From: Candidatus Altimarinota bacterium
GTDB taxonomy: Bacteria > Patescibacteriota > Gracilibacteria > UBA1369
Assembly (NCBI GenBank): GCA_041659405.1
Contig: JBAZYK010000004.1
Location: 60,001 to 92,000 of the forward strand
Length of the DNA: 32,000 nucleotides
Reading direction: 5' to 3'
A model generated the notes under the pieces. The model did no database searches. It saw only the letters and a program-made list of their open reading frames with translations, and was not told the origin of the DNA. The position numbers and the translations under genes were made by a program. The number at the start of each line of letters is the position of its first letter. Position 1 is the first letter of the stretch. Of this stretch, positions 5,537-31,645 are shown one piece after another.

Positions 5537-5744
5537 ATAAGTTGGGTTACTTAAGTGACTCAATTGTATACTATTTGCGTCACTGGCGCAAGTTTTTGTT
5601 CTAAATTTTTCTATTACGCACGAAGTGCCTACCTCTACCGCGAGTAAAGCGAGCTCCTTATTCCATGCCAAGCCAAAAATCGCCTGATTCTCTTTGCCAA
5701 AATCCCCAAAATTTGCTAAAATATAGGGATTTAAAACAAAAATC

Positions 5745-11836: not shown

Positions 11837-11974
11837 ATGGAATATAACAAAATCGTTCTGCCGCCTCTTCAAACCAAAGAAGAATTTTCAGATGAACTGG
11901 AAGCTGCAGAACGTGATTGGCAAAAAAACGGAGGCCTTACTCTAAAGAAAATATCGCAAAAATATAAACTTTAA
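11837..11974 (+). CDS. Small hypothetical ORF (45 aa, MEYNKIVLPPLQTKEEFSDELEAAERDWQKNGGLTLKKISQKYKL)
   Basis: ATG at 11837 and TAA at 11972-11974, found by hand translation (below the ORF-track cutoff). It fills the gap between the SLH gene and the convergent paralog, overlapping that paralog's stop by 4 nt. No recognisable family. Confidence 0.25.
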   Translation: MEYNKIVLPPLQTKEEFSDELEAAERDWQKNGGLTLKKISQKYKL

Positions 11975-13659
11975 TAAATCAGTTTTAAATAGCAACTGTT
12001 GCAATAAACAGGCCTTTCATCGGCATAAGTTGTCTGTATTTTTGTTTTGCATTGATGACAATTCCGTTCCAAAAGTCTGCGGGGATTCAATTGCCCTTCC
12101 CTGGTTTTATGCCTGCAATCAGAGCATTTTCGTGGGATAGGAAGCTGCAATTTACGATAGAATTTTAATTCTTGAGGGATGATTTTATAGTTTTTACCGC
12201 AATCTTCGCACGCCAAAATTTCCTGAGTAATCGAGTCCGGAACTGTCTGAATTTGATCGGGGATTGCGATTTTAGAAGGTTGATATTCCTTTAAATCCGG
12301 CTCAACCCAATGCAATCCTTTTGCTAAAGTGGCGTTTTTATCGAGTGGAAAATAATCCTGTGCGATGGTTTCGTTATAGGCAAAAGGGCTTATTTGAGAG
12401 GGGAAAAAGTCGCCCCATTCCTCCGCGCTCACACCATCCGCCGTGTGCTGGCTTTTCCGCATCTGCTCAATGATTTTTGGCACAAGCTTATTGTATTCCT
12501 CCTCGGAATATTGCTTGTTCAAAATGCAAAATTTCTTATGTTTAAGGCCAACACAACCAAAACAATGGTCGGAATAAAAAGTTTCAAAACTATAATAAAC
12601 ATCATGGATATTCCAACTGTGAATTACATTAAAACAATTGAATGCATCTACGGCGCTCATGCAATTATAAAGAAGTTCCCCTTTTGAATAATTGATATCT
12701 TGGCAGTCCTTAGCGCCAGCCGGAATATTCCAGCAATAAGCACAATCTTCAATTCCATCCGCATGGTAGCAATGGTCGGAATTTTTAGAGTTTCTTAAAT
12801 AATCTCCGCTGCAATTTTCACAATTAACCATTTGGCTGGCCACATGAGGAAACGGGGCAAAGAAATCTTTAGTTTTTAGTTCCATTTTTTGCAATTCCCC
12901 GCGTCCGGATTGCAGGTTTTTTAAAAAGTCTTCATATTCACTTTTCGAAACCGGCTGATTAAAAATGTGATATTGCTTGTTCCTTAAGCCAAAACAACCA
13001 ATACAATTTTGGCAACCCCTGCAATCGTTACAAAAATAAAGATCAGAACTGTTCCCGGAATCTTTACAGAAAATCGATCCATACAAATTGTCACATTCAA
13101 CGCATTCATAGCAAAGTTCGCAGCGTGAACAGCCGTAACAATCAACGCAATCACGCGAAAAATTTGTCCAAAAACAATAATGGCAACTTTCACTATAGCC
13201 ACCCGAAACGCACATGTAAGAATTCTTAAAAGCGATGGAATAAGGGCAAAAATCACTATTTTCACTCTTGTCCGAAACCATCATCGCAAAATGCGGAACC
13301 GCTTTTAAAAGCTCATCAAATTGCGCAAAAAATGGCTTGCTCAAGTCGTAATCTTGCCCGTATTGCATGGGGTCCCAGTCGTCACTCCACCACGCTTTTG
13401 ATTCATAAACTTTATAAGGCGAATTAGCCGGATAAAAAGAGATAATATCTTTATTGGTTAAGTCACATTTTCTTTTATAAAAAGTCCGTTCATTGCGAAA
13501 ACTTAAGCGCCTCTGTTGCCTGCAATCAGGGCACATCTTTAATAGCAGCGGATATTTTTTGCCATTAAAAATTGGCGCAATTCTTTCAAAAAAATCCAAA
13601 TCTTTTTGTGAAAGCTCAAAATTTTTGTGACACTCTTTGCACTCAGCAATCACAGGCAA
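11971..13659 (-). CDS. Cys-rich double-zinc-ribbon repeat protein, paralog 1 of 7 (uncharacterised family)
   Basis: 562 aa with no signal peptide. N-terminal CKECHKNF...FFERI...CPDCRQQRRLSFRNERTFYKRKCD. Duplicated motif GCFGLRNKQYHIFNQPVSKSEYE and GCVGLKHKKFCILNKQYSEEEYNKLVPKIIEQM. C-terminal CEDCGKNYKIIPQELKFYRKLQLPIPRKCSDCRH...RNCHQC...VYCNSCY. The start lies 13 nt after the ATPase stop. Confidence 0.9.
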   Translation of the reverse strand: MPVIAECKECHKNFELSQKDLDFFERIAPIFNGKKYPLLLKMCPDCRQQRRLSFRNERTFYKRKCDLTNKDIISFYPANSPYKVYESKAWWSDDWDPMQYGQDYDLSKPFFAQFDELLKAVPHFAMMVSDKSENSDFCPYSIAFKNSYMCVSGGYSESCHYCFWTNFSRDCVDCYGCSRCELCYECVECDNLYGSIFCKDSGNSSDLYFCNDCRGCQNCIGCFGLRNKQYHIFNQPVSKSEYEDFLKNLQSGRGELQKMELKTKDFFAPFPHVASQMVNCENCSGDYLRNSKNSDHCYHADGIEDCAYCWNIPAGAKDCQDINYSKGELLYNCMSAVDAFNCFNVIHSWNIHDVYYSFETFYSDHCFGCVGLKHKKFCILNKQYSEEEYNKLVPKIIEQMRKSQHTADGVSAEEWGDFFPSQISPFAYNETIAQDYFPLDKNATLAKGLHWVEPDLKEYQPSKIAIPDQIQTVPDSITQEILACEDCGKNYKIIPQELKFYRKLQLPIPRKCSDCRHKTREGQLNPRRLLERNCHQCKTKIQTTYADERPVYCNSCYLKLIY

Positions 13660-13672
13660 GATAATAAATAAA

Positions 13673-15910
13673 TTAAATCAGCGGCACCTCAAAATCTTCC
13701 GCCTGTTGAATCACGTTGTTGGTCTGCGGCAAAGGTTCATCCAGCTTTCCTTCATCCCAACGTTTCAAATTTTCTTCAACCTTTTCACGAGGGTTGCAAT
13801 ACTTTTTGCGTGAAGCTTCAATAATTTGTCTGGTGTAATCAACTTCCGGAAATTTCATATCCAGAGTTCGCCCGGAAAAGGCTTCTGTAAGCTCTCCATT
13901 GATTGACATTTTTAAATAAAATTCACGAACGCCAAGGTTAATAATATCGCGAATATTGAAAATTGGCGTGTATTCACCTTCCAGAATCACCGCATCTTCC
14001 GCTCCAACTCTAAAACTAATCATGGAACCGACGTTACCAAAAACCGTTTTACGAATCATCTCACTCAGCTGCCCAATATATTGATGCGCAATGGTCATGC
14101 ACAAGCGATATTTACGGGCTTCGGACATGATTTCGGAAAAGGTATCTGTGGCAAAGTTTTGGAATTCATCCACATAGAAATAAAAATCTTTGCGATCTTC
14201 TTCGCGCATATCCGCGCGGGACATCGCCGCCTGATAAATTTTTGTGATAATCATCGAACCGATCAACTGCGCGTTTTCCTCACCCAGCAGACCTTTAGAG
14301 ACCTTCATCAAAAGGATTTTTTGACCGTCCATAATATCGCGAATATTAAAACTGTTCTTCGGCTGGCCGATAATATTACGAATCATATTTGTGGAAACCA
14401 GCTGTCCAACTTTATTGAGCAGTGGAGTAATGGCTTCAGAATCGAACTTTTCACTCCATCCGGCAAATTCATTTACCCAGAAATTTTTCACCACCGAATC
14501 CTCGATCCTGGACACAATCGACTGACGATAATTCTTATCCGAAAGCATTTTTAAAATCGAAAGCACAGTCGTGTTTGGCGAGTCCAGAAGCGCCAAAGTC
14601 ACATAACGCAAAACGTGTTCCAGACGGTCTGACCAGTTATTTCCAAACAGTTTTTTAAAGATTTGAATAAAACCAATTGTAATCTGCATTTTGTATTTTT
14701 CGTCGACTTTTTCCAATGGATTAAAAGCGATGGGGAACTCCGTATCGGCAGGATCAAAATAAATTACATCATTGATGCGATTTTCCGGAATCATGCGTAA
14801 AATGTTGTCTACAAGGTCTCCGTGCGGATCAAGCACGCAAATTCCCTTACCGGAATGAATATCCGAATGGATCAAAAGTTCCAAAGCTTTCGATTTGCCA
14901 ACACCGCTTTTCCCCACAACGTACAAATGTCTGCGGCGATCTTCACGCTTCAAGCCAAATTTTTGAAAATTGTTATGATAATTCGTAATTCCAAACATGG
15001 AAATGTCATCACCATGGGTCGGTAAATCTTTTGGAGGTTCGTGTTTTTTGGCTAACACATGCACAACATGAGGCACGTGATCGGCATTCGGCAAATGGAA
15101 AAAAGTTGCCAATTCATGAGTGCTTACCATTCCCGGATTGGTCATATGTCGCTTCTTGTACTCATTCAAAAACGACTGTCCGCTTTTTACGCGCTCCATT
15201 TCAAAACCATTCGCGTCGGTTTTGTTGAATTGATAAAAGGCTTTTGCAAGCGCCTGGAGTGTTCTGTCAGCCTCGGATTCTTCTGTCGAAACAGCACCAA
15301 TTCGAATTTGAATTTCAAAAGGTTCGTGCTCTGTTTTATGCACAAAAGACTCATTTTCTTCTTTGAAATAGGTTTTTTTATCCTTCAAACGAACGTAATT
15401 CTTAAGTCTGAAGTTCCGTCTAAAATTGTTAAATTTCATCTTCCATCTGCGCACAAAATGATATTTCCAGTTGTCGTCTTTTGGTGAAACCAAAATCTGG
15501 ATCCAGGAATAATCCTGGCGTTTCATCTTGGAAATAACCGCAAAAACACCGGAAAGAGAGTCATTTTCAAAATGACTGTAATCCACAAAAGGATAAATAT
15601 CGCTCATTCTAAAGCTCAAACTCGTTCCTTTTAGAACGTGCTTGGTTGGATCATAAAATTCGGTGTAATCTTTATAAGGACGGATTTCACAGTCCGGAAA
15701 AGTCGCATAGAGTAGACCTTCAATCAATTTTACATTGCCGGATTCGCAGCCAATAAAAAAGTAGGTGTATTCATTATACCCCAGCATTTCAAACGAAAAA
15801 TGGCCATGGTGAGCCGATTTATGCAGGTTATCCAAAAAATTCAGGAAGAGACCTTCTTTTTTTGGATTATCCGGTGTTCCCTGCGGTATGACAACATGTA
15901 AATATTCCAT
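13673..15910 (-). CDS. VirD4/TraD/TraG-like (type IV coupling-protein-like) P-loop ATPase, soluble form
   Basis: 745 aa. Walker A LYVVGKSGVGKSKALE, Walker B-like DFYFYVDEFQNF, and a TraG/TraD C-terminal-type motif ARKYRLCMTIAHQYIGQL. There is no hydrophobic N-terminal segment. No other T4SS genes are present in the window. Confidence 0.75.
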   Translation of the reverse strand: MEYLHVVIPQGTPDNPKKEGLFLNFLDNLHKSAHHGHFSFEMLGYNEYTYFFIGCESGNVKLIEGLLYATFPDCEIRPYKDYTEFYDPTKHVLKGTSLSFRMSDIYPFVDYSHFENDSLSGVFAVISKMKRQDYSWIQILVSPKDDNWKYHFVRRWKMKFNNFRRNFRLKNYVRLKDKKTYFKEENESFVHKTEHEPFEIQIRIGAVSTEESEADRTLQALAKAFYQFNKTDANGFEMERVKSGQSFLNEYKKRHMTNPGMVSTHELATFFHLPNADHVPHVVHVLAKKHEPPKDLPTHGDDISMFGITNYHNNFQKFGLKREDRRRHLYVVGKSGVGKSKALELLIHSDIHSGKGICVLDPHGDLVDNILRMIPENRINDVIYFDPADTEFPIAFNPLEKVDEKYKMQITIGFIQIFKKLFGNNWSDRLEHVLRYVTLALLDSPNTTVLSILKMLSDKNYRQSIVSRIEDSVVKNFWVNEFAGWSEKFDSEAITPLLNKVGQLVSTNMIRNIIGQPKNSFNIRDIMDGQKILLMKVSKGLLGEENAQLIGSMIITKIYQAAMSRADMREEDRKDFYFYVDEFQNFATDTFSEIMSEARKYRLCMTIAHQYIGQLSEMIRKTVFGNVGSMISFRVGAEDAVILEGEYTPIFNIRDIINLGVREFYLKMSINGELTEAFSGRTLDMKFPEVDYTRQIIEASRKKYCNPREKVEENLKRWDEGKLDEPLPQTNNVIQQAEDFEVPLI

Positions 15911-16062: not shown

Positions 16063-16131
16063 TTGATATTGTTTCAATAAAACAACATATATGATAAGAT
16101 ATACGGTGGAATATATAATCTATCATATATG
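16063..16131 (+). promoter_or_regulatory. Putative promoter and inverted-repeat operator of the Phd/RelE operon
   Basis: TTGATA at 16063-16068 is followed about 17-18 nt later by an AT-rich -10-like catatat. An inverted repeat catatatgataagat (16086-16100) / atctatcatatatg (16118-16131) gives 14 bp with one bulged A and overlaps the -10 region and the start codon. Confidence 0.45.
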
Positions 16132-16377
16132 AAATCAATAATTACCACTACCCAGGTGCAACAAAAAATTGGCAAAATATCGGAAGAAATAGTGGAAAAC
16201 AGCTATGTCGTCACCAACAGGGGAATGGCAAAAATTGTCATGCTCCCATATTTTGATGGTTGTGATGATTTTATCGATGATTACATGGAAGAATTCGAGA
16301 TACTTAAAAACAGAACAAAATTGCAAAAAGAACTTAAGGAATCACTTAAGTCCGGTAAAAGCTCTCTCCAAATATGA
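16129..16377 (+). CDS. Type II antitoxin, Phd/YefM-like
   Basis: 82 aa. The N-terminal pattern MKSIITTTQVQQKIGKISEEIVENSYVVTNRGMAKIVMLPY fits the Phd/YefM fold signature. The stop overlaps the downstream toxin start (ATGA at 16374-16377). Confidence 0.7.
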   Translation: MKSIITTTQVQQKIGKISEEIVENSYVVTNRGMAKIVMLPYFDGCDDFIDDYMEEFEILKNRTKLQKELKESLKSGKSSLQI

Positions 16378-16643
16378 ACACTTTTGTTTTTACAAAAAGC
16401 GCCCAGAAGCAGTTTTTAAGCATTTCATCTTTGGCTCAAACCCAAATAAAAGCAAAACTTGGACTGCTTAAAAATTATCCGGACATTATAAAAATAATGA
16501 AGCCCCTTCATAATTTGGAACCGGCCACACATCGCTTAAGAATCGGCGCTTATCGATTATTGCTTTGCCTAAAATCAAGCCATCAAAATGACCAAGAGTT
16601 TTGGATCCTCAAAATCGGACATCGAAAAGATGTTTATAAATAG
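16374..16643 (+). CDS. Type II toxin, RelE/ParE superfamily
   Basis: 89 aa with a C-terminal HRLRIGAYRLLLCL...FWILKIGHRKDVYK typical of RelE/ParE. It is translationally coupled to the upstream antitoxin. Confidence 0.75.
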   Translation: MNTFVFTKSAQKQFLSISSLAQTQIKAKLGLLKNYPDIIKIMKPLHNLEPATHRLRIGAYRLLLCLKSSHQNDQEFWILKIGHRKDVYK

Positions 16644-16664: not shown

Positions 16665-18356
16665 TTAATAAACCGCTTCCAAATAACACTTTTCGCAATA
16701 AATAATTTCGGGCCTTTCCGGCGCATAAGTTGTTTTCAAATCCACGCCACATTTTGCGCAATTTCTATTCCAAAGTTTGCGAGGATTTATTAAAGCTTTT
16801 CGGGAATAATGCCTGCAGTCAGGGCAAAGTTTTGGCACAGGAACGCCCAATTTTCTATATAATTCCAATTCCTGGGAAATAACTTTGTAAGGATTGCCAT
16901 CTTTTTCGCAGATAAGCGCCGAGTTTAAAATATCATCATTAATTTCTTTGATTGTGCCCTTATCATTTAGTGCAAAAGTTTTTTGAGCAGCGATTTTTGG
17001 CTTAAGATAGTCATTCCAGTTAAACCCCTTGGCAATTGCCTCTTCCCGACTTAGTGGAAAATATTCCTGAGCCAACGTGTCATTATAGCCATAAGGCGAC
17101 ATTTGTTGCGGGTAAAATTCTCCCCACTCACCATTTTTTTTCATGTGTTCAATAATTTTTGGTAACAGTTCCTCGTATTGTTCTTTGGAATATTGCCTGT
17201 TCAAAATGCAATACTGCTTATGTCTAAGCCCAATACAGCCAAATAAATTCTGGGAACTAAAACAATAATCGCTATAAAATAAATCACTACATCCCAGGGA
17301 ACATTTAATACAAAATTTGGAATTATTTGTTAGGTATACGCCAACACATCCATACAAAAAAGTGGAATCCATGCCTGAGTTAAAGCAATCTTGGCTGTTT
17401 TGCATCATGCCGTCCCAAACATACTTAAGCCCTTCCGACATCATGACATCAAAACAAAATTTGCAGTTTTTTGATTGCATAATGTAGTCCCCAACGCAAT
17501 CTTCAGAAGCCAAAAGATGTGAATATAGCCGCGGTATTTTTTTTGAAATTTCCGAAACTTTTTCTTTAGTTTTTTTAATGTTTTCGTTTGAAAAAACAAA
17601 AGTTTTCATAAACTCCTGATACTCTTCTTTTGTTTTCTGCTCATTGAAAATGCAATATTGTTTATGCCTAAGGCCTACGCATCCAAAACAATCCGTACAA
17701 CTCTGACAATCATCACAGAAAAAACATTCATTTAGATTTTGGCTGTTCATAGACCAAAAACTGCGATAAGAGTTGGAAACTTTTACACATTCATAAGATA
17801 ATTCACATTCAAAACACCAAAACATATCCATGCAGTCCCGACTGGTTAGGCCAAACGTGTTGCAGTAATGACAATTTTCGGCTTGTTCGCTGTTAAAACA
17901 AAGATAACAATTTTTAAGATCATTAGTGTCATTGCAGTATTCGCTGGTTTCATTATTGCGATTTTGCAGGTTGATCGAAGGGACTTTTTTGAGTAGCTCC
18001 TCGAATTGGTCAAAAAATGGCCTGTTAAAGTCAAAATCTTTTCCATAAGTTAAAGGATCCCACTTGTCCGACCACCAGACAGCCTGATCATAAACCGGAT
18101 TTTTAAAAGTTGGAGGATAAACCGAAATAATATCCTTACCCGAAAAATCACATTTGCGCTTATATAAAACCCTTTCATTCCTAAAAGCCGTCAGGCGCTG
18201 CATTCTGCATTTGGGACAAATAACCGGCGCTGGCAATATATATTTTACGCCTTTAATAACAGGAGAAATCTTATCGTAAAATTCCAAATCTTCATTAGCG
18301 ATTTCAAAACTTTTCTGACAAATTTTGCAGTTTTTTATTTCTGACATATAGCCCAT
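16665..18356 (-). CDS. Cys-rich double-zinc-ribbon repeat protein, paralog 2 of 7
   Basis: 563 aa. CKICQKSFEI...FYDKISP...CPKCRMQRLTAFRNERVLYKRKCD; GCVGLRHKQYCIFNEQKTKEEYQ and GCIGLRHKQYCILNRQYSKEQYEELLPKIIEHM; C-terminal ...LCPDCRHY...RNCAKCG...IIYCEKCYLEAVY. The first C-terminal knuckle is CEKD instead of CxxC. Confidence 0.9.
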   Translation of the reverse strand: MGYMSEIKNCKICQKSFEIANEDLEFYDKISPVIKGVKYILPAPVICPKCRMQRLTAFRNERVLYKRKCDFSGKDIISVYPPTFKNPVYDQAVWWSDKWDPLTYGKDFDFNRPFFDQFEELLKKVPSINLQNRNNETSEYCNDTNDLKNCYLCFNSEQAENCHYCNTFGLTSRDCMDMFWCFECELSYECVKVSNSYRSFWSMNSQNLNECFFCDDCQSCTDCFGCVGLRHKQYCIFNEQKTKEEYQEFMKTFVFSNENIKKTKEKVSEISKKIPRLYSHLLASEDCVGDYIMQSKNCKFCFDVMMSEGLKYVWDGMMQNSQDCFNSGMDSTFLYGCVGVYLTNNSKFCIKCSLGCSDLFYSDYCFSSQNLFGCIGLRHKQYCILNRQYSKEQYEELLPKIIEHMKKNGEWGEFYPQQMSPYGYNDTLAQEYFPLSREEAIAKGFNWNDYLKPKIAAQKTFALNDKGTIKEINDDILNSALICEKDGNPYKVISQELELYRKLGVPVPKLCPDCRHYSRKALINPRKLWNRNCAKCGVDLKTTYAPERPEIIYCEKCYLEAVY

Positions 18357-18404: not shown

Positions 18405-20054
18405 TCAATAAACCGCATCCAGATAACACTTTTCGCAATAGACAATTTCTGCATGTTTAGGCGGATAAGTCGTCTTCATCACTGCTCCGCATTTATTACA
18501 ATGATCTGAATAGATTTTATAACTGTTTCTCATATTCATTCTGGTGCGATGCCTGCATTCATAGCAGCTTCGTGGAATTGGTAAATTTGTTTTTTTGTAA
18601 AACGCCAATTCAAGCTTGATTATGCGATAATTTTTATGACACTCCGCACAGGTTAATATTTCTTTAGTTATACTTTCATCAATCGCTCCGGAAGAATCGG
18701 GTAATGCAGCCATAGTTGCAGGTACGTAATTCTTTTTATCTTCATCAAGCCAGCTATAACCGAGTTTCAAAGCTTCCGCTTTTGTAAGCGGATAAAAATC
18801 CTGAGCGGCGGTTTCGTTGTAGTCAAAAGGTGAAACGGTTTTTGGGAAAAACTGCCCCCATTCCCCATTTTTCTTCATCTGTTCAATAATTTGTGGCACC
18901 AGCTTTTCATATTCTTCTTTTGAGTATTGCTTGTTTAAAATGCAATATTTTTTGTGTCGCAAACCTACGCACCCAAAACAGTCGGCCGAAGAAACACAAC
19001 TATCGCAATAGCGTAAACCATTGGAAAACCAGGTGTAGTTGCAGAAAGCAATATCGGTGGATCCTCTTGAAACAAGTGATGAATAGACAACTTCACACTT
19101 TGGCCAACCTGCGGAATAGCAGCCGTAAACATCTTTTGAATCACTCAACGAAATGGAATTGCAACAATCTTCACCGTTATGACCATCAAAACAATCAATG
19201 CAATTTTTTGAGTCATACAGGTATTCTCCGCTGCAATTTTCGCTGTTAATCAGTTTAAGATTTCTGCGAATTGTCTTTTTGCGAATGTCCAAAAACAGCT
19301 GATAGGCTTCCTGATAACTTTTCCATGATCCATTCAGATATTTTTTCTTAAAGGTCTCGAATTCCTCTTTGCTGCAAGGTTTATTGAAGATGTGATAACT
19401 TTTATTAATTAAATTTGAACAAAGAAAGCAATTGTTGCAGCCACGGAGTTGATAAGAAAAATAACATTCATTGCTGTTCGCGGATTCCTGCAACATGACG
19501 CAGCTATAACAATTTTCACTATCGCTGCAGTTATAACAAAGCGTGCTGTTGTGAGTGTACATTGAGTCCAAAACGTCTTTATCGTTAACCATCCAATAAG
19601 AATACATCATGTCTTCACACCCGGCTACAAGCGAGTTTAAATAGCAATTTTTAGAAGTGCGGATGTGGCCGTTATAATCACAATTTTCACTGTTAAAAAC
19701 GGAAGTTCCTTCGCGAGGAACAACTTTTTGCAGTTCGGCAAATTGTTCAAAGAATGGACGATTAAAATCGAAATCCCGACCATAATCCAGGGCTTCCCAA
19801 GTGTCTCCCCACCAGATTGAGTTGGCGTAAATTTTGAACGGACTATCCGGTCTGTAAGCACTTAAAATTTCTTTTCCAGTGGAGTCACATTTCCTTTTAT
19901 AGAGCTTCCATTCATTGCGGAAAGCCATCAATATTTGCAATCTTTCATCCGGTGTCGTAGTTGGTTCCGGTACGCCAAGGCGTTTGCAAAACTCGATTTC
20001 CTGATCCTGAAGCTCAAAATTCTTACCTGATAAGTGTGATTTTCTAATAGACAT
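18405..20054 (-). CDS. Cys-rich double-zinc-ribbon repeat protein, paralog 3 of 7 (N-terminal ribbon ligands lost)
   Basis: 549 aa, colinear with the other copies. The N-terminal ribbon positions read KSHLSGKNFEL...TPDERLQILMAFRNE (Cys replaced by S, S, T, E). It has CFGCVGLRHKKYCILNKQYSKEEYEKLVPQIIEQM, and the C-terminal CAECHKNYRIIKLELAFYKKTNLPIPRSCYECRH...HCNKCG...VYCEKCYLDAVY is intact. Confidence 0.9.
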   Translation of the reverse strand: MSIRKSHLSGKNFELQDQEIEFCKRLGVPEPTTTPDERLQILMAFRNEWKLYKRKCDSTGKEILSAYRPDSPFKIYANSIWWGDTWEALDYGRDFDFNRPFFEQFAELQKVVPREGTSVFNSENCDYNGHIRTSKNCYLNSLVAGCEDMMYSYWMVNDKDVLDSMYTHNSTLCYNCSDSENCYSCVMLQESANSNECYFSYQLRGCNNCFLCSNLINKSYHIFNKPCSKEEFETFKKKYLNGSWKSYQEAYQLFLDIRKKTIRRNLKLINSENCSGEYLYDSKNCIDCFDGHNGEDCCNSISLSDSKDVYGCYSAGWPKCEVVYSSLVSRGSTDIAFCNYTWFSNGLRYCDSCVSSADCFGCVGLRHKKYCILNKQYSKEEYEKLVPQIIEQMKKNGEWGQFFPKTVSPFDYNETAAQDFYPLTKAEALKLGYSWLDEDKKNYVPATMAALPDSSGAIDESITKEILTCAECHKNYRIIKLELAFYKKTNLPIPRSCYECRHRTRMNMRNSYKIYSDHCNKCGAVMKTTYPPKHAEIVYCEKCYLDAVY

Positions 20055-20150: not shown

Positions 20151-20233
20151 AAGCTTGGTTAAAAGCCATGTTCTTGATATTTTATTTCATAACATTCATC
20201 ATATATATGAATTTAATTAATTTAACTAATTTT

Positions 20234-20479
20234 ATGTCAGTATTTACTTTGAAACTTTTCAACACAGGGCAAATAACCCTGCCTAAAGCATGGCGCGAAA
20301 AATTCACGACAAAGTTGTTTCTGGCAAAAGAAACCCCTGAAGGTTTATTGATCCAGCCAATCGAAAAGAATGAACTGGTCTATTTTGAAAATAAAGAAAG
20401 TTTTGGCCTGTATTGCGAAAAAGGCCTGCCAGTCGACGATATTATTTCAACCATCAAAAAAATCCATGGAGCAGATTGA
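20234..20479 (+). CDS. AbrB/MazE (SpoVT-AbrB) family DNA-binding protein or antitoxin-like protein, with no adjacent toxin
   Basis: 81 aa from the internal ATG at 20234 (MSVFTLKLFNTGQITLPKAWREKF...), which fits a swapped-hairpin AbrB-type motif. The longer ORF from 20168 adds an implausible Phe/Ile-rich leader. Confidence 0.6.
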   Translation: MSVFTLKLFNTGQITLPKAWREKFTTKLFLAKETPEGLLIQPIEKNELVYFENKESFGLYCEKGLPVDDIISTIKKIHGAD

Positions 20480-20503: not shown

Positions 20504-22240
20504 CTAATAAACCGCTTCCAGATAACATTTTTCACAATAGACGATTTTCCCCCGCTTAGCGGGGGACCCCGCTGCGGCGGTGGCTGGCCTTTCCGGCGCA
20601 TAAGAAGTCTGAATTTCTGCTCCACATTTTGCACATGCACGTTTCCAAAGATGCAGGGGGTTGCGTTTGCTCATCCTTTGTTTATGCCTGCAATCAGGGC
20701 AAAGATGAGGCAAAGGGATATTCCCTTTTTTATAAAATGCCAATTCCTGTTTGATAATTCGATAATTTTTATCACAGCCATCACAGCTCAGAATTGCCTG
20801 CAGTAAGTCATCCCGAACTTCAGCGACGTTATCAGGGATCTGAATTTTTGGTCCGGCATATTTGTTTGATAAATCCTCTTCTTGAAAACCAAGTCCAAGC
20901 TTCAAAATTTGCTCTTTTGTGAGAGGAAATTGCTCGTTTGCGACCGTTTCATTATAACTAAATTCAGAAATATTCATCGGGAAAAATTCACCGAAGTCGC
21001 CACTATTCGATCCGGAAACACTTATTTTCTTCATTTGTTCGATAATGCGCGGCACAATTTTTTCATATTCTTCTTTGGAATATTGTTTGTTCAAGATGCA
21101 ATACTGCTTATGCCTAAGCCCTACGCAGCCAAAGCAGTTTTGACTGCTAAAGCATCCAACGCAATAAATCAAATCACTTGTTCCAGACCAGCATTGAATG
21201 CAAAAAAGATCATGTTTTGCGCCTAATGCCGTATTGATTGATTCATAGACAAGCTCTGCATCGCGCCCAACCGTGCTCACATCCATATTGTCTTTGGAAT
21301 TACGCCAAACGTGTTCGCTGTATTTACAGTCCTCCGCATCATGGGCATGAAAACATTCTTCGCAATTTTTGCTTTGCTGAATGTAGTCACCGGAACAATT
21401 TTCGGCCTTCAAAAATTGGGCATAGCGATGCGGAAATTTCAATAATAACTTTTCAAATTCAAGTTTATTTTTAGATAAATTGGAATAAGAACCATCCAAG
21501 TATTTTCCCTTGAGAATTTCATACTCTTCTTTTGTATATTGTTTGTTAAAAATGCAGTATTCTTTTTGGCGAAGATTCACGCAAAAAAGACAATTTTTGC
21601 ATCCGATACAATCATTCAAAAAAGCGCTATCGGAACAACCGTTACAATTTTGTGACCACTTCAAATTATAACAGTTATAGCAATTATCAACTTCATAACA
21701 TTGCTGTGACTCATGTGAAAAAGATGAGTCAACGCAGTCGGTACATTTCTGCAGCCAATAGCCATAAAGACAGTCTTCATTGTTGCTGCTTTCAAAAACC
21801 AGATAGCAGTTTTTGCAATTGGCGATCAAATTACAATAATCCGAATTTTCATTATTTTCACTTTTGATATTCATTTGTGGAACCTCGTGCCAAAGCTCAG
21901 CGAATTGCTCAAAAAACGGCCTATTAAAATCAAAATCCTTACCAAATTCAGTGGCATCCCAAGTATCTTTCCACCATTCTTTATGATCATAGACTTTATA
22001 TTTTTTGTCGGGACTATACATCGAAATCAGCTGCTTTCCCGTTAAATCACATTTACGATTATAAAGTTTTCGTTCGTTTCTAAAGGCTAACCTCCGCTGT
22101 CTTCTGCAGTCAGGGCAAAGAGTCGGCGAGGGGATTTGATATTTTTTGCCACCAAAAACAGGCGAGATTTTTTCATAAAAATTCAAGTCATTATCCGTAA
22201 TTTCGAACTGAGTTTTACACTGACGACAGTTTTTTAACAT
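20504..22240 (-). CDS. Cys-rich double-zinc-ribbon repeat protein, paralog 4 of 7 (carries a 13-codon GC-rich insertion near the C-terminus)
   Basis: 578 aa. CRQCKTQFEI...FYEKISP...CPDCRRQRRLAFRNERKLYNRKCD; CLFCVNLRQKEYCIFNKQYTKEEYE and GCVGLRHKQYCILNKQYSKEEYEKIVPRIIEQM. The C-terminal ...SYAPERPATAAAGSPAKRGKIVYCEKCYLEAVY corresponds to ...YAPERPEIIYCEKCYLEAVY in paralog 2. Confidence 0.9.
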   Translation of the reverse strand: MLKNCRQCKTQFEITDNDLNFYEKISPVFGGKKYQIPSPTLCPDCRRQRRLAFRNERKLYNRKCDLTGKQLISMYSPDKKYKVYDHKEWWKDTWDATEFGKDFDFNRPFFEQFAELWHEVPQMNIKSENNENSDYCNLIANCKNCYLVFESSNNEDCLYGYWLQKCTDCVDSSFSHESQQCYEVDNCYNCYNLKWSQNCNGCSDSAFLNDCIGCKNCLFCVNLRQKEYCIFNKQYTKEEYEILKGKYLDGSYSNLSKNKLEFEKLLLKFPHRYAQFLKAENCSGDYIQQSKNCEECFHAHDAEDCKYSEHVWRNSKDNMDVSTVGRDAELVYESINTALGAKHDLFCIQCWSGTSDLIYCVGCFSSQNCFGCVGLRHKQYCILNKQYSKEEYEKIVPRIIEQMKKISVSGSNSGDFGEFFPMNISEFSYNETVANEQFPLTKEQILKLGLGFQEEDLSNKYAGPKIQIPDNVAEVRDDLLQAILSCDGCDKNYRIIKQELAFYKKGNIPLPHLCPDCRHKQRMSKRNPLHLWKRACAKCGAEIQTSYAPERPATAAAGSPAKRGKIVYCEKCYLEAVY

Positions 22241-22252
22241 AATTCAGAGCTT

Positions 22253-23905
22253 TTAATATACTTCCTTTTCATAACATTTTTCGCAGTATACAACTTCCGG
22301 GCGATCGGGCGAATATGTGGTTTTAATTTCCGCACCACATTTTGCGCAATTTCTGGTCCAAAGTTTGCGTGGATTTCGTAAGTCAAAACGCGCCTTATAT
22401 CTGCAATTAAAGCACTTTAAAGGCACCGGGATATTCATTTTTTTATAAAGTTTTAATTCCTGACTAACCAATTTGTAATTTTTCCCGCAGCATTCACAGG
22501 TTAAAATTTTATTGGCAAAACTTTCATCAACATTGGAAATTTTTTCCGGAATTACAATTTTTGCACCCTGATATTTTGTGATGCTTTCCTCATCTTTCCA
22601 CTTAAACCCTTTTTGCAGGATTTGCTCTTTGCTAAGCGGATAATACTCATTTGCAACGGTCTCATTATAAGCAAAAGGCGAAAGTTGTGCCGGGAAAAAT
22701 TGTCCCCATTCTCCTGTTTCTTTCATATGTTCAATAATACGCGCACTCAATTTTTCATATTCTTCTTTGGAGTATTGTTTATTGAAAATACAATACTGTT
22801 TTCGGCGCAGACCAATGCAGCCAAACAGGTCTCCCGATCCGGCAAAACAGTAATAACAATGGGTTAAATTTTTAATATTATTACCGCAATAAGCGCTGAA
22901 TTTTACGTTATAAAAGCCGTTTCCGCAGAGCTGGTTTTCGTAACCAAGTTCAGCCGGCAAGCCCCAGGCATAACAATCGTAACAATCCTTGGCGCGATGA
23001 AACCAGACGCACCATTTGCAATCTTCCAGATAGGTGGAGTCATAACATTCTTCTGAATTTTTTGAAAAGAAAACGTGATCACCAGTCACATTTTCATTGC
23101 TGATTCCGGCATAATATTTATGCGGAATTGATTTTTTTAACGCATAAAATTTCTCACGGGCAGCCTCAAAAGAAGCTCTATCTTTAAGTAATTCCTGAAC
23201 TTTTTTGAAATATTCTTCTTTGGAGTATGGCTTATTAAAAATATAATATTCCTTGTTTTTTAGCGACACACAGCCAAAACAGTTCGAGCATCCTTTGCAG
23301 TCATACAGAAAATATGAATCTCGGCAATTCTGACAAATCTGACTGTGCTGCAGATTGTAGCAGTTATAACTATCAATACATTCATAGCAAAGCTCCGAAT
23401 CAAAAATAAAAAAACAGTCAGAAACATCCTTGCAGCGCTGAATATAGGTTGTATAAAAACAATCTTCACTGTCGCTCGCCGCAAAAATCAAATAACAATT
23501 TTTATTTCCGGAACTTAAATGTGTATAGTCGCAATTCACATTATCATCGTGCATGTTGATGGAAATAACCGGAACCTCCAACATCATCTCTTTGAATTGT
23601 TCAAAAAACGGCCTGTTAAAGTCAAAATCACGGCCATATTTCATTGGATCCCATTTGTCACTCCACCAACACTTATGACAATAAACTTTCACCGATTTAT
23701 CCGGCGAATAAATCGAAATTATCTGTGAGCCGCAAAGATCACATTTACGGTTATAAAGTTTGCGCTCATTACGCCAGGTTAAGCGCCTTTGCATGCGACA
23801 ATCAGGGCAAAAATTTGGCTGCGGAACCTGCATTTTTGTATAAAAAGCCTGATCCTTATCTGTGATTTCAAATGATCCGCCACATTGTTTGCAGGATTTA
23901 TTCAT
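22253..23905 (-). CDS. Cys-rich double-zinc-ribbon repeat protein, paralog 5 of 7 (both N-terminal ribbons fully liganded)
   Basis: 550 aa with 42 Cys by hand count. N-terminal CKQCGGSFEI...FYTKMQVPQPNFCPDCRMQRRLTWRNERKLYNRKCDLCG...VYCHKCWW. C-terminal CECCGKNYKLVSQELKLYKKMNIPVPLKCFNCRY...RNCAKCG...VYCEKCY. Confidence 0.9.
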   Translation of the reverse strand: MNKSCKQCGGSFEITDKDQAFYTKMQVPQPNFCPDCRMQRRLTWRNERKLYNRKCDLCGSQIISIYSPDKSVKVYCHKCWWSDKWDPMKYGRDFDFNRPFFEQFKEMMLEVPVISINMHDDNVNCDYTHLSSGNKNCYLIFAASDSEDCFYTTYIQRCKDVSDCFFIFDSELCYECIDSYNCYNLQHSQICQNCRDSYFLYDCKGCSNCFGCVSLKNKEYYIFNKPYSKEEYFKKVQELLKDRASFEAAREKFYALKKSIPHKYYAGISNENVTGDHVFFSKNSEECYDSTYLEDCKWCVWFHRAKDCYDCYAWGLPAELGYENQLCGNGFYNVKFSAYCGNNIKNLTHCYYCFAGSGDLFGCIGLRRKQYCIFNKQYSKEEYEKLSARIIEHMKETGEWGQFFPAQLSPFAYNETVANEYYPLSKEQILQKGFKWKDEESITKYQGAKIVIPEKISNVDESFANKILTCECCGKNYKLVSQELKLYKKMNIPVPLKCFNCRYKARFDLRNPRKLWTRNCAKCGAEIKTTYSPDRPEVVYCEKCYEKEVY

Positions 23906-26683: not shown

Positions 26684-28333
26684 TTAATAAATTTCCTTCA
26701 AATAACATTCTTCACAAAGCACTGTTTCCGGCCTTTTCGGAGCGTAAGTTGACTGAAGTTTTTTTGAACAGTTGCTGCAAATTCTTTCAAAAAGTTGTCG
26801 TGGATTACGAATCTGCATCCTTTGTTTATGCCTGCACTCTGAGCAAATTCTTGGCACAGGAATATCCATTTTACGATAAAACTGCAATTCTTGATTAACA
26901 ATTTTGAAATTCTTATGACAATCCAAACAGAGCAAAATTTCGTTAACCATTGCATCTGTAAAATCTTTAATTTGATCCGGAATTTTCAACCTTTGAGGTT
27001 GTGCAGTTTTTTCATCTTCATCCTTCCACTGGAATTTTTCTTTTAGTGCCTGCTCTTTTGTCAGAGGATAATAAGCAGAAGAAGTGGACTCATTATACCC
27101 AAAACAGGCTAAATCCTTTGGCAAAAACTTTCCCCATTCCCCATTTTTTTTCATGTGCTCAACAATTTTCGCATACAATTTTTCATAATCTTCTTTTGAA
27201 TATTTTTTATTTAAAATACAGTATTGCTGATTCTTAAGCCCTGTACAGCCCAAAAGATTTTGGGAATTTTGGATAAAATCGCAATATTGAATATTAGATG
27301 AATCCGCAATGAAAAATGAAAATTGAATATTATAACATTTCATAACAGACACACACTGATACAAAAGCTCAGCATCATCACCCAAAAGGCAGGACTGAAA
27401 ACAATCTTTTTCCTTGCTGGCGAAGATAATATTACGCAAATCCTGGCTTTCACTTACATCAAAACAGTTCTTACAATTTTTACTGTTTTTAATGTAATCA
27501 CCGCTGCAATCCTGGCAGGAAACAGTATGAATATATTTAACTTTTCGCTTCTTTAGTAAATCCAAAAAATCCCCAAAATTCTTTTGCTGCTGCACATAAG
27601 ACCCATTTATCAGCTCCTGCTTTTTTTGCAGATATTCTTCTTTTGAATATTTTTGATTATTGATGCAATAGGATTGATTAGCCAAATTTGTGCACAAAAT
27701 ACATTCGCTGCAACCAATACAGTCACTAATAAAATAACAATTATTACAGTTTTTTGAATCAAAAGTAACCCGGCAACCATATGAATTTAGAGTGTCTCCC
27801 ATCACATAACAAAGCTCGTTAAAATTGCTGTAATCAAGGTCAAGTGAGCCCACGTTGCTCATGCAAAGCGTGCCAAACAAACAGTTTTGATTAAAATCAC
27901 CACCAAAAATTAAATAACTGTCTTTATTTCCATAAGCACTATTGCAGTAATCGCTATTAACAGCATTTATATTTGTTAATGCCAGTCTTGGTACTTGCAA
28001 TTGTAATTCTTTAAACTGTTCAAAAAACGGCCTGTTAAAGTCAAAATCGCGACCATAAGAAAGCGCGTCCCATTTGTCACCGTACCAATAATCGCTTTTA
28101 TAAACCTTATATGGCTTGTCAGACGAATAGATAGAAATAATTGTCTCACCGGTTGCATCACATTTTCTTGTATACAGTGCCCGTTCATTTCTAAAACAAA
28201 GTCTTTGCTTTTGATCACATTCGAAGCATAATTCTTGTGGTTCAAATCCGAATTTTTTAAAACAATCCCAATCTTCCTGCTCGTAAGAAGAAGGCTTCTG
28301 GCACTCTTTGCAATTAAAAGTTACAATCGACAT
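26684..28333 (-). CDS. Cys-rich double-zinc-ribbon repeat protein, paralog 7 of 7 (most divergent)
   Basis: 549 aa from the internal ATG at 28333 (MSIVTFNCKECQKP...); the longer ORF adds 17 unconserved residues. CFECDQKQRLCFRNERALYTRKCD; CILCTNLANQSYCINNQKYSKEEY and GCTGLKNQQYCILNKKYSKEDYEKLYAKIVEHM; C-terminal CLDCHKNFKIVNQELQFYRKMDIPVPRICSECRH...RICSNCS...VLCEECYLKEIY. Confidence 0.9.
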   Translation of the reverse strand: MSIVTFNCKECQKPSSYEQEDWDCFKKFGFEPQELCFECDQKQRLCFRNERALYTRKCDATGETIISIYSSDKPYKVYKSDYWYGDKWDALSYGRDFDFNRPFFEQFKELQLQVPRLALTNINAVNSDYCNSAYGNKDSYLIFGGDFNQNCLFGTLCMSNVGSLDLDYSNFNELCYVMGDTLNSYGCRVTFDSKNCNNCYFISDCIGCSECILCTNLANQSYCINNQKYSKEEYLQKKQELINGSYVQQQKNFGDFLDLLKKRKVKYIHTVSCQDCSGDYIKNSKNCKNCFDVSESQDLRNIIFASKEKDCFQSCLLGDDAELLYQCVSVMKCYNIQFSFFIADSSNIQYCDFIQNSQNLLGCTGLKNQQYCILNKKYSKEDYEKLYAKIVEHMKKNGEWGKFLPKDLACFGYNESTSSAYYPLTKEQALKEKFQWKDEDEKTAQPQRLKIPDQIKDFTDAMVNEILLCLDCHKNFKIVNQELQFYRKMDIPVPRICSECRHKQRMQIRNPRQLFERICSNCSKKLQSTYAPKRPETVLCEECYLKEIY

Positions 28334-28465
28334 GTGAAATAAAAAATCTAAACGGATTATAATAATAGTAGTCCGTAAACGCAATTAACAACCTCCACAA
28401 CCTTCGAGGTCGGCCCAACCTCAAAGGTCGGTTGTAAGAAATAGTCCAATAACCCGTCATAAGAT

Positions 28466-30028: not shown

Positions 30029-31189
30029 ATGCTCAAAACTCAACAGCAACTTTTGGAGGACGAAGCTAAAATATTGGCTTCTTATGCCATGAAAAATGCG
30101 GAAAGTGCCGGACGAGTTTATAAAGAGCCGGAAGATCCTTACAGATTACCTTTTCAACGTGATCGCGCCAGAATTATTCATTCCAAGTCTTTTAGAAGGC
30201 TGCAAGCCAAAACTCAGGTTTTTGTTTCTTATTTTGGCGATCATTATCGTGATCGCATGACACATTCAATTGAAGTCTCGCAAATTGCGCGCGACATTAG
30301 CCGAACTTTGGGTTTAAACGAGGATTTAAGCGAATGTTTGGCACTTGCCCATGATTTGGGTCACCCACCGTTTGGACATGGTGGAGAGGCCGCTTTGGAT
30401 GAAGTTTTGCAACCTTTTGGATTACATTTTGAGCACAATGAACAAAGTCGTCGCATCATTGAGAAACTTGAAAAAATTCATCCGGAATATGATGGACTTA
30501 ATGTCACTAAAGAGGTTTTGGATGGCTTACTTAAGCACCATCCGGAGCTATATAAAAAATATCTGGAGTTTGAAACTTCGCCACATTTGGAAGCCCAGGT
30601 TGTGGATCTTTCGGATGAAATTGCCTATACCAATCACGATATTGATGACGGTCTGCGCTCCGGATTGATTACGATTGAGCAATTACAGCAATTTACACTT
30701 TGGCAAAATGCGGAAAAAATGGTTAGTAACGAAATCGGAACAGGCATTTCATTAGAAGATAATGACAAAAAAGACCGATTTTATTTGCGGGTAATCAGCA
30801 CTTTAATTAAGTTGATGATTCATGATCTTTATTCTACGACCCATGAAAATCTTGAGCGGAATCAGATAAAAACGGTTCATGATGTTAGGGCGCATAAAGG
30901 AATGCTGGTTGGATTTAGCACGGAAATGAAACAACAATTGGCTGATCTGCGCGCATTTTTGATGAAAAATTATTATTTGAATCCCAAGGTTTCTGATGTA
31001 ATTGATAAAGGTAAGCAAATTTTGAAGGATCTTTTCCGGCATTACCTTGACCATCCGGAAAAATTGCCTCATCCTTCAGACGAAAACGTAAAAGCTTCCG
31101 AAAGGCTGGAGGTTGTGATAAAAGATTACTTGGCAGGCATGACCGATCATTATGCCGAAGAGATGCATTCAAAAATTACCAATTCCTAA
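30029..31189 (+). CDS. dgt: dGTPase-like HD-domain deoxynucleoside triphosphate triphosphohydrolase
   Basis: 386 aa. FQRDRARIIHSKSFRRLQAKTQVF, DHYRDRMTHSIEVSQIARDISR and LALAHDLGHPPFGHGGE are hallmark dGTPase/HD motifs. Confidence 0.85.
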   Translation: MLKTQQQLLEDEAKILASYAMKNAESAGRVYKEPEDPYRLPFQRDRARIIHSKSFRRLQAKTQVFVSYFGDHYRDRMTHSIEVSQIARDISRTLGLNEDLSECLALAHDLGHPPFGHGGEAALDEVLQPFGLHFEHNEQSRRIIEKLEKIHPEYDGLNVTKEVLDGLLKHHPELYKKYLEFETSPHLEAQVVDLSDEIAYTNHDIDDGLRSGLITIEQLQQFTLWQNAEKMVSNEIGTGISLEDNDKKDRFYLRVISTLIKLMIHDLYSTTHENLERNQIKTVHDVRAHKGMLVGFSTEMKQQLADLRAFLMKNYYLNPKVSDVIDKGKQILKDLFRHYLDHPEKLPHPSDENVKASERLEVVIKDYLAGMTDHYAEEMHSKITNS

Positions 31190-31198
31190 TCAACAAAA

Positions 31199-31645
31199 AT
31201 GGTCTGTCCAAAGTGCAAACAGGATGACACCAGAGTGCTGGATTCACGCGACACGCACGAGAAAAAAGAGATTCGTCGTCGTCGTGAATGTATTAAATGT
31301 CAGCACCGTTTTACCACTTTTGAAAGAGTGGAAACGGCCAATTTTATTGTTATTAAAAGAGACAATTCCCGTGAAAGTTATGACCGTGAAAAGCTGGCGC
31401 GCGGCGTTTGGAAAGCCTGCGAGAAAAGGCCGGTTACCCAGGAACGTGTCGAAAAACTATTAAATGAAATCGAAGAAGAATTGGGGAATTTTGGTAAAGA
31501 AATTCCCAGTAAAATGTTGGGCGAAGCACTCATGGAAAAGCTTAAGAAACTGGACGAAGTGGCTTACATCCGCTTTGCATCCGTGTATCGCCAATTTAAA
31601 GATTTGGAGAGTTTCAAAAAGGAACTCCAAAAATTGATTGACTAG
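31199..31645 (+). CDS. nrdR: Transcriptional repressor NrdR (zinc ribbon plus ATP-cone)
   Basis: 148 aa. MVCPKCKQDDTRVLDSRD...IRRRRECIKCQHRFTTFERVE is the NrdR zinc-ribbon signature, followed by an ATP-cone-like region. Confidence 0.9.
   Translation: MVCPKCKQDDTRVLDSRDTHEKKEIRRRRECIKCQHRFTTFERVETANFIVIKRDNSRESYDREKLARGVWKACEKRPVTQERVEKLLNEIEEELGNFGKEIPSKMLGEALMEKLKKLDEVAYIRFASVYRQFKDLESFKKELQKLID

Follow-up and report, generated by a model that had tools for sequence, protein, structure and literature searches.

We describe here a protein family of the Patescibacteria through one of its members, encoded on the minus strand at positions 22253-23905 of a 32,000-nucleotide stretch of Candidatus Altimarinota bacterium DNA (GenBank assembly GCA_041659405.1, contig JBAZYK010000004.1, positions 60,001 to 92,000 of the forward strand; this whole stretch is hereafter called the window). 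Our results suggest that the core of this 550-amino-acid (aa) protein, the query, is probably a beta-helix of 12 residues per turn with Cys facing its lumen, that zinc would be bound only at the termini, and that the seven copies of the gene present in the window would be linked to an ATPase encoded next to them. The explanation as a whole, which we consider probable without being confident of it, gives the query the form A-B-B'-A', i.e. homologous basic finger modules of about 80 residues (A and A') around homologous beta-solenoid blocks (B and B'). The gene and its parts are as follows.

22253..23905, minus strand: whole gene, 550 aa, 42 Cys; proposed layout finger module / beta-helix / beta-helix / finger module
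23651..23905, minus strand: N-terminal module (aa 1-85), fingers N1 = C5/C8/C33/C36 and N2 = C55/C58/C76/C79
23543..23650, minus strand: conserved linker (aa 86-121), motif WDP..YGRDFDF.RPFFEQF..L...VP
23255..23542, minus strand: block 1 (aa 122-217), eight 12-residue coils, proposed narrow beta-helix
23105..23254, minus strand: end-of-helix motif K.Y.IFN..YSKEEY and variable helical hairpin (aa 218-267)
22790..23104, minus strand: block 2 (aa 268-372), proposed degenerate second beta-helix block, end motif FGC.GL..K.YC
22511..22789, minus strand: aa 373-465, most conserved segment ILNKQYSKEEYE..IIEHM..GEWGEFFP..SPFGYNET.AQ.YFPL, then a variable linker
22256..22510, minus strand: C-terminal module (aa 466-550), fingers C1 = C470/C473/C498/C501 and C2 = C520/C523/C541/C544

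The plus-strand translation of this region is full of stops, and the identical protein of the public database bears the name 'zinc-ribbon domain containing protein [Candidatus Gracilibacteria bacterium]'. The query has neither a transmembrane segment nor a signal peptide (maximum Kyte-Doolittle score 0.77) and is predicted to be cytoplasmic. Its full-length AlphaFold model reaches a predicted local distance difference test score (pLDDT) of 84.4 and a predicted template modelling score (pTM) of 0.87. The parts run in the order A-linker-B-helices-B'-conserved segment-A'. Across 259 family members, the linker keeps D95, F100, F101, Q103, L107 and P112 at 93-100%, and the segment of aa 373-465, which has no Pfam domain match, keeps N375 at 100% and Y378, Y383, G401, P405, Y413, N414, P423 and W436 at 95% or more. 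The lowest conservation within the protein is found at aa 218-267, where the model places two helices (229-239 and 243-259) and where N224 is conserved in 99% of the same members. A comparison of sub-alignment profiles detected no homology between the linker that follows the N-terminal module and the segment that lies after half 2, before the C-terminal module.

Duplicated halves and a proposed 12-residue coil

The first-pass annotation, made from the letters of the window and a list of its open reading frames (ORFs), had proposed that homologous modules cap both termini and that the core between them is internally duplicated. Both proposals were confirmed. Residues 4-85 align on residues 470-550 without gaps at 38% identity (BLASTP E 6e-23), and family profiles of the two modules built from 85 sequences matched with an hhalign probability of 99.8% (E 3e-30). 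The two halves of the core are 32% identical over 161 aa (E 2e-17), and their 85-sequence family profiles again gave an hhalign probability of 99.8%, with E 4.5e-30. The motif GC.GL that was said to end each half stands in part: FGC.GL closes block 2, but half 1 of the query reads GCVSL. Inside a single module, fingers 1 and 2 show no detectable homology beyond the CxxC knuckle.

The consecutive Cys spacings previously listed for block 1 of the query were recovered exactly, from C125 to C212, as 12, 12, 9, 6, 9, 3, 6, 9, 3, 9, 3, 3, 3. Those of the paralogue at 20504-22240 also read as listed (6, 3, 12, 9, 3, 12, 6, 3, 9, 3, 9, 3, 3, 3, 9), and the lone spacing of 10 was found in the paralogue at 16665-18356. 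A shuffle test on the core Cys spacings of up to 30 residues, in each of the seven paralogues, revealed a clear enrichment of the three-residue period: multiples of three made up 80-92% of the spacings per paralogue (7/7) versus 31% +/- 10%, and none of 5000 composition-preserving shuffles reached the observed value. In the 259 members, 5096 of 6045 core spacings (84.5%) are multiples of three, the modal values being 3, 9, 6 and 12. The strict rule is limited to block 1; block 2 of the query has the exceptions 16, 13, 10 and 10. No tandem repeat behind the Cys pattern was found at the DNA level.

Block 1 behaves as a repeat of fixed length. It measures exactly 96 aa, or eight times 12, in 239 of the 259 members; the length of block 2 ranges between 99 and 108 aa in the same set. 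The residues of block 1 follow a strict three-phase pattern. Phase a holds 43% Cys, 18% Ser, 11% Leu, 6% Asn and 5% Val, Tyr, Glu, Phe and Lys occur in a mixed phase b, and phase c carries Asn (22%), Asp (18%), Gly (8%) or an aromatic residue. Nearly all block-1 Cys (97.9% of the 3649 in 259 proteins) stand in phase a. The autocorrelation of the block-1 profile peaks at all multiples of three and is highest at lags 12 (-0.69) and 24 (-0.91), the other multiples of three lying at about -1.4 and the remaining lags at about -3.5; both the peaks at multiples of three and the maxima at 12 and 24 survive the deletion of Cys from the column profiles. In block 2 the periodicity is weaker, with lags 3, 6 and 13. 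The averaged 12-mer of block 1 reads [C/N/S]-x-[N/D]-[C/S]-[Y/F]-[Y/F]-[C/S/L]-x-[N/D]-[C/L/S]-x-[N/G/D].

The structural models point in the same direction. Two AlphaFold2 runs, of which the one on half 1 alone had a pLDDT of 80.4, gave a beta-rich core in which DSSP strands of the form EEEE--E--E-- recur each 12 residues. In Foldseek searches of the PDB, the full model weakly matched LpxD, GlmU and gamma-carbonic anhydrase (E 0.05-1), and half 1 matched MfpA and QnrB1 (E 0.014-0.14, probability up to 0.75), all of them beta-helix proteins. The model evidence on the core consists of the DSSP strand pattern and these Foldseek matches. The core has no Pfam domain. The suggestion of the first-pass annotation that the recurrent Cys units might reflect a solenoid-like repeat is supported by the 12-periodic autocorrelation, the fixed 96 aa, the strands of the models and the beta-helix matches.

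We propose that block B would form a very narrow beta-helix in which each turn takes 12 residues, as four sides of three. Every third side chain would face the lumen (in-out-out), and this inward position would be filled mostly by Cys (43%), then by Ser, Leu, Asn and Val, usually with a turn-forming Asn, Asp or Gly just before it. The Cys spacings would be multiples of three because a coil of four times three residues points every third residue into the lumen.

We read this geometry as closest to that of the beetle antifreeze protein TmAFP (PDB 1EZG), whose 12-residue coil TCTxSxNCxxAx runs out-in-out with C2, S5, C8 and A11 inward (PMC8038014). The likeness lies in the 12-residue coil with four three-residue sides, in the inward and small character of every third residue (Cys, Ser, Ala), in the Asn that precedes an inward Cys and in a very regular repeat intolerant of insertions and deletions. 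However, no sequence homology was detected between the two, and TmAFP is a secreted insect protein whereas the family is bacterial and predicted to be cytoplasmic. TmAFP has disulfides between residues i and i+6, where the family has Leu, Ser or Ala partners; its TxT ice-binding face is not found in the family, whose 12-mer consensus lacks a Thr ladder. In the family, one face instead bears a Tyr/Phe ladder, and the helix would be set inside a multidomain protein of 550 aa.

Leucine-rich-repeat and other solenoids possess Asn/Cys ladders with repeat lengths of 20-29. The likeness would be a ladder position filled interchangeably by Asn, Ser or Cys: along the proposed solenoid of the family, one corner reads N at 134, N at 146, S/C at 158, S/C at 170 and C at 182, 194 and 206. 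Unlike the leucine-rich-repeat horseshoe, the family would have a repeat of 12 in an all-beta closed helix.

Predicted zinc fingers at the termini and cysteines of the core

The two-ended caps, which had been described as double ribbons, are real, but Pfam and the predicted topology indicate that they are better described as treble-clef-type zinc fingers. The Pfam model zf_Tbcl_2 (PF23477) matches aa 513-548 of the query with 31.6 bits, above its gathering threshold of 27 bits; in the other six paralogues it gives 18-22 bits or no match, below the threshold. The N-terminal finger scores 23.6 bits with zf_Tbcl (PF13451), just under the cut-off of 24, and TIGR04272 gives 26.3 bits, below its cut-off of 36 bits. 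On these scores, zf_Tbcl and TIGR04272 are near misses, to which the fingers appear similar without being formal members. In the model (pLDDT about 90), each finger has its first CxxC on a hairpin and its second at the N-terminal start of the helix that comes next, an arrangement that we assign to the treble-clef topology. Both the model matches and this topology bring the fingers close to the zf_Tbcl_2/zf_Tbcl/TIGR04272 group ('probable treble clef', CxxC-x17-CxxC), whose members are themselves uncharacterised and give no function; the family differs from them by having two fingers per module of about 80 aa, at both protein ends. A weak similarity (E 0.006) links the last finger to the second finger of LIM proteins, and this last finger was alone in finding a match, to LIM fingers, in a sequence search of the PDB. 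Small phage 'zinc-ribbon' proteins can be superposed on the fingers with deviations of 0.4-1.7 A over 38-45 aa. Both modules are basic, with 16 K/R versus 8 D/E (+8) in the N-terminal one and 19 K/R versus 9 D/E (+10) in the C-terminal one.

The Cys of these fingers come and go together. In N2, C58, C76 and C79 co-occur with phi values of 0.97-1.0, all being present in 73 sequences and none in 183-186, and N2 is present in 28% of the family; phi reaches 0.95 for the ligand pair C473/C501 and 0.92 for C8/C36. In C2 (C520/C523/C541/C544), each Cys is 97-99% conserved and the site is intact in 97%. Being gained or lost as units, the terminal Cys4 sets look like true zinc sites, and C2 is the one obligatory site family-wide, the other three being dispensable in many members. 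Within the window, the query alone among the seven copies carries all four sets; the other six lack C58/C76/C79.

The core Cys behave differently. The first-pass annotation had named a stacked zinc-knuckle ladder as one of its two readings of the core, but this was not supported, as Cys are swapped singly (for Ser, Leu or Val) and complete tetrads occur about as often as independent loss would predict. Joint versus independent frequencies of the core tetrads were 0.72 vs 0.69, 0.42 vs 0.36, 0.53 vs 0.45, 0.32 vs 0.28 and 0.50 vs 0.45, whereas the terminal Cys4 sites were all-or-none in the same alignment (0.28 vs 0.02, 0.51 vs 0.21 and 0.81 vs 0.61). Single replacements in core tetrads are common (e.g. 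LCCC, CCCS, CCCG), and core Cys are replaced mainly by Ser, but also by Leu, Val, Ile, Ala and Asn. At position i+6, the partners of core Cys are mostly Leu, Ser and Ala, with phi values for Cys presence of -0.43 to -0.52 at this lag; the opposition of Cys to Leu, Ser or Ala looks like packing complementarity rather than pairing. Because the core tetrads are non-cooperative while the terminal sites are all-or-none, we read the core Cys as lumen or ladder residues: they would pack the inside of the solenoid, as neither cooperative zinc sites nor disulfide pairs of the TmAFP kind. Judged by these substitution patterns, zinc binding would be confined to the four terminal Cys4 sites.

Paralogue arrays, their ATPase and other neighbours

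The query belongs to an array of paralogues in the window, which includes a regulator gene and is followed by an ATPase gene.

11971..13659, minus strand: paralogue, 562 aa, 43% identity to the query, downstream of the ATPase
13673..15910, minus strand: TraD/VirD4/TrwB-like P-loop ATPase, 745 aa, soluble, co-directional with the array
16665..18356, minus strand: paralogue, 563 aa, 45% identity; C1 site reads CDCC
18405..20054, minus strand: paralogue, 549 aa, 43% identity; finger N1 has lost all four Cys (SSTE)
20504..22240, minus strand: paralogue, 578 aa, 51% identity; 12-aa insertion in the C2 finger loop
23932..25587, minus strand: paralogue, 551 aa, 51% identity
25871..26650, plus strand: TrmB-family regulator (Pfam TrmB, E 3.2e-12), embedded in the array
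26684..28384, minus strand: paralogue, 566 aa as listed, 43% identity; TTG start

The insertion in the paralogue at 20504-22240 is rich in Ala and Gly (ATAAAGSPAKRG) and brings the Cys spacing to 30 instead of 18, in a finger that is otherwise invariant. The TTG start of the paralogue at 26684-28384 adds a hydrophobic extension of 17 aa, MRLRTTIIIIRLDFLFH, for which no other copy has an aligning counterpart; the true start is probably the Met 17 codons downstream, at about 28331-28333. Some paralogues of the window are closer to copies of other genomes (55-59% identity) than to any neighbour (43-50%), and we regard at least some of these lineages as old because their closest relatives are found in other genomes. 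Gracilibacteria are often reported to read TGA as Gly. In the window (GC 39%), TGA is the stop of 3 of the 18 long ORFs and all genes read cleanly with table 11; translation with this table is appropriate, given that TGA ends these three genes.

The family is Patescibacteria-wide and uncharacterised. Searched as a whole, the protein brought up over 7,800 clusters (90% identity), and a profile of the core alone returned 4,444 representatives at 50% identity, so that the family comprises at least 4,400 such clusters; 1,899 of the representatives have E <= 1e-30, nearly all being about 550 aa long with a common layout. The species-representative genomes that carry the family are labelled Peribacteria/Peregrinibacteria, Gracilibacteria, Abawacabacteria, Paceibacteria and Nomurabacteria, with further occurrences under the labels Staskawiczbacteria, Giovannonibacteria, Jorgensenbacteria and Saccharibacteria. 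One member lies on a contig labelled Micrarchaeota archaeon (DUGF01000091.1), and another protein carries the label Oligoflexia; binning errors, or else rare transfers out of the Patescibacteria, may account for them. One longer member has an N-terminal GNAT domain, which is probably a gene-fusion call and uninformative. The family was not found in phage genomes, where a finger-sized match was all that was obtained, and PADLOC and PHROGs returned nothing meaningful for it. In the literature library that was searched, no paper mentions the family, nor does a preprint on protein families of the Candidate Phyla Radiation (CPR) mention it. The Cys-rich proteins of Peribacter (PMC4736985) were considered and rejected as the same family, since those are large, secreted and pappalysin/Myxococcus-repeat-like.

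Members of the family form arrays. At least two members lie within +/-10 kb at 62 of 82 loci and at least four at 38 of 82, and an array may hold up to about 11 copies. An opposite-strand TrmB gene stands in or beside 34 of 60 arrays elsewhere, near the array end. At 21 of the 49 loci that could be evaluated, the last family gene is followed immediately downstream by an ATPase of about 750 aa, and many independent genomes keep the order 'array, TrmB, ATPase'. The ATPase of the window matches the Pfam models T4SS-DNA_transf (PF02534, 44 bits vs a cut-off of 20.1), TrwB_AAD_bind and TraG-D_C, and falls far below every NCBIfam equivalog cut-off. Its P-loop domain is like that of the TraD/VirD4/TrwB coupling proteins, with Pfam matches above the cut-offs. 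Unlike them, it has no transmembrane anchor (no transmembrane segment, maximum Kyte-Doolittle score 1.02); its orthologues at other loci carry an N-terminal DUF8128 instead, and other genes of type IV secretion systems were not seen near the ATPase. At four loci labelled Nomurabacteria or Paceibacteria, the arrays have not one ATPase but an ATPase-like ORF on each side, the upstream one of about 500 aa and the downstream one of about 800 aa, and no TrmB was detected at these four. Large Bacillus phages encode distant, uncharacterised homologues of the ATPase (gp156 of phage G, with 91% coverage and E 1e-41; gp27.4 of SPO1), and the array-linked ATPase matches PHROG 5156 (E 2e-71).

We suggest that the paralogues would be a repertoire of rigid binding or adaptor proteins that work with, or are handled by, the downstream TraD-like ATPase, their basic finger modules serving as nucleic-acid-binding or partner-binding ends. 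An ATPase-linked binding or adaptor role would then apply to the family.

The remaining genes of the window that we annotated are the following; promoter and terminator scans gave nothing above chance.

456-1460, minus strand: tyrosine recombinase
1719-4370 (minus strand), 5745-8996, 9091-10725 and 10800-11825 (plus strand): four large proteins with C-terminal SLH domains
4409-5803, minus strand: ATPase with AAA_14 and DUF4143 (PADLOC PDC-S01, E 8.6e-156)
16081-16640 and 20168-20479, plus strand: small toxin-antitoxin genes between paralogues, Pfam just below gathering scores
28466-29908 and 30029-31645, plus strand: sigma factor of the extracytoplasmic function (ECF) type, then a DUF5667 protein, an HD-domain dGTPase-like protein and NrdR

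The SLH-domain cluster, in which two proteins have FlgD_ig domains and one has a run of GDQPPG repeats, probably encodes cell-surface or S-layer proteins. The toxin-antitoxin genes comprise a Phd/YefM-like antitoxin overlapping a ParE-like toxin, and a MazE/AbrB-like antitoxin; arrays of other genomes contain HicA/HicB and PIN genes. The DUF5667 protein may be the anti-sigma partner of the ECF sigma factor, and the pair is followed by an HD-domain dGTPase-like protein and NrdR.

Alternative explanations and meaning

Several observations weigh against a 12-residue beta-helix with zinc at its ends and an ATPase at its service. The two AlphaFold runs disagree in detail over residues 150-180, half 2 is modelled with low confidence (pLDDT 57-70), and Foldseek gave no significant neighbour (best E 0.014), TmAFP being outside the top 50 matches. 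The ATPase is missing at 26 of 49 evaluable loci and is absent beside many dispersed single copies, and the functional link between it and the paralogues is drawn from gene neighbourhood only. Moreover, two coils have four Cys each (173/176/179/182 and 203/206/209/212), C203, C206, C209 and C212 are each 88-96% conserved with all four present in 72% of members, and in block 2 a moderate cooperativity is seen for the tetrad 296/299/308/311 (0.25 vs 0.10, joint versus independent). These two four-Cys coils could hold metal. The coils and the tetrad, with 15-37 core Cys per protein (about 7% Cys overall) and the free thiols to be expected in a cytoplasmic protein, speak for a core that is a metal-binding ladder, in which zinc, Cu(I) or Fe-S on a thiol lumen or on stacked CxxC would make a metal store, a wire or a redox protein. 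We consider this unlikely, given that most core Cys give way one by one to Ser, Leu, Val or Ile (in 10-60% of cases) and that the joint frequencies of the tetrads stay near the independent expectation when the terminal sites are all-or-none. A typical coil has two or three Cys with one Leu, Ile or Val and one Ser, Ala or Asn, there is neither His enrichment nor a ferredoxin-type motif, and the periodicity remains once Cys is removed. A disulfide-braced helix of the TmAFP type, with an i/i+6 staple in each coil and an extracytoplasmic location or oxidising conditions, would agree with the shared in-out-out logic of the 12-residue repeat and with the Asn or Asp before an inward Cys (compare N7-C8 of TmAFP). 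It appears improbable in the extreme: signal peptide and transmembrane segment are absent, the best-conserved Cys face Leu, Ser or Ala at 137/143, 149/155, 194/200, 203/197 and 209/215, and the lag-6 correlation of Cys presence is negative (phi as given above). Besides, no TCT or TxT face is present and Pfam has no insect antifreeze match at E <= 1. The Foldseek matches could also mean that the core is one of the helices already known, either the left-handed hexapeptide helix of acyltransferases (18 residues per turn), as LpxD, GlmU and gamma-carbonic anhydrase would suggest for the full model, or the pentapeptide-repeat helix of the Qnr/MfpA DNA mimics (20 per turn), as MfpA and QnrB1 would for half 1. 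These matches are non-significant, however, with TM-scores of at most 0.30 and root-mean-square deviations of 7-20 A (MfpA: E 0.014, TM-score 0.28), and Pfam found neither Hexapep nor Pentapeptide. Lag 18 (-1.43) is level with the other multiples of three, versus -0.69 at lag 12, lags 5, 10 and 20 are at background, and the core is just mildly acidic, unlike DNA mimics. Thus, a hexapeptide or pentapeptide helix is very improbable.

As to function, the arrays might instead be a conflict system, in which the diversified beta-helix paralogues would sense phages or act as exported effectors, the TraD/HerA-like ATPase being the motor or effector. Toxin-antitoxin modules do lie inside the arrays, here and elsewhere, the PADLOC candidate-defence ATPase PDC-S01 is encoded 6 kb away, the array ATPase weakly matches the PADLOC models mad8 and HerA, and copy number is variable. 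Against this, the family itself has no PADLOC match and was not found in phage genomes, and membrane secretion components are not adjacent. The paralogues are moreover old (40-59% identity), some being paired with counterparts of other genomes, and are not fast-evolving. On this balance, we judge a conflict system quite unlikely.

In conjunction, the results on the query and its family combine what is known, a proposed beta-solenoid and treble-clef fingers, with what is new, a family core that lacks a Pfam domain, a relative of solved structure and a literature of its own. To our knowledge, beetle antifreeze proteins, with coils held by disulfides, are the main case in which a beta-helix of 12 residues per turn has been described to date. 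An intracellular 12-residue helix with reduced Cys, Ser and Leu as its filling would extend the known design space of beta-solenoids.

We also put forward a broader idea, which we hold to be doubtful though worth stating: the arrays might serve a dedicated soluble TraD-like translocase as its clients, sensors or cargo adaptors, forming a new CPR-specific intracellular system, and the Cys lumen might also bind a column of metal ions. Such a lumen would parallel, in a beta-helix, the Cys-lined helical bundles of the copper storage proteins. If true, the array-translocase system of the CPR or the metal-column lumen would be a system and an architecture without described precedent. The genomes of Patescibacteria measure about 1 Mb and contain little redundancy, and many of these bacteria nevertheless keep up to about 11 copies of a 550-aa protein, some 1% of the genome. 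The conserved link with the ATPase and TrmB offers a testable handle on an unknown cellular system in episymbiotic bacteria.

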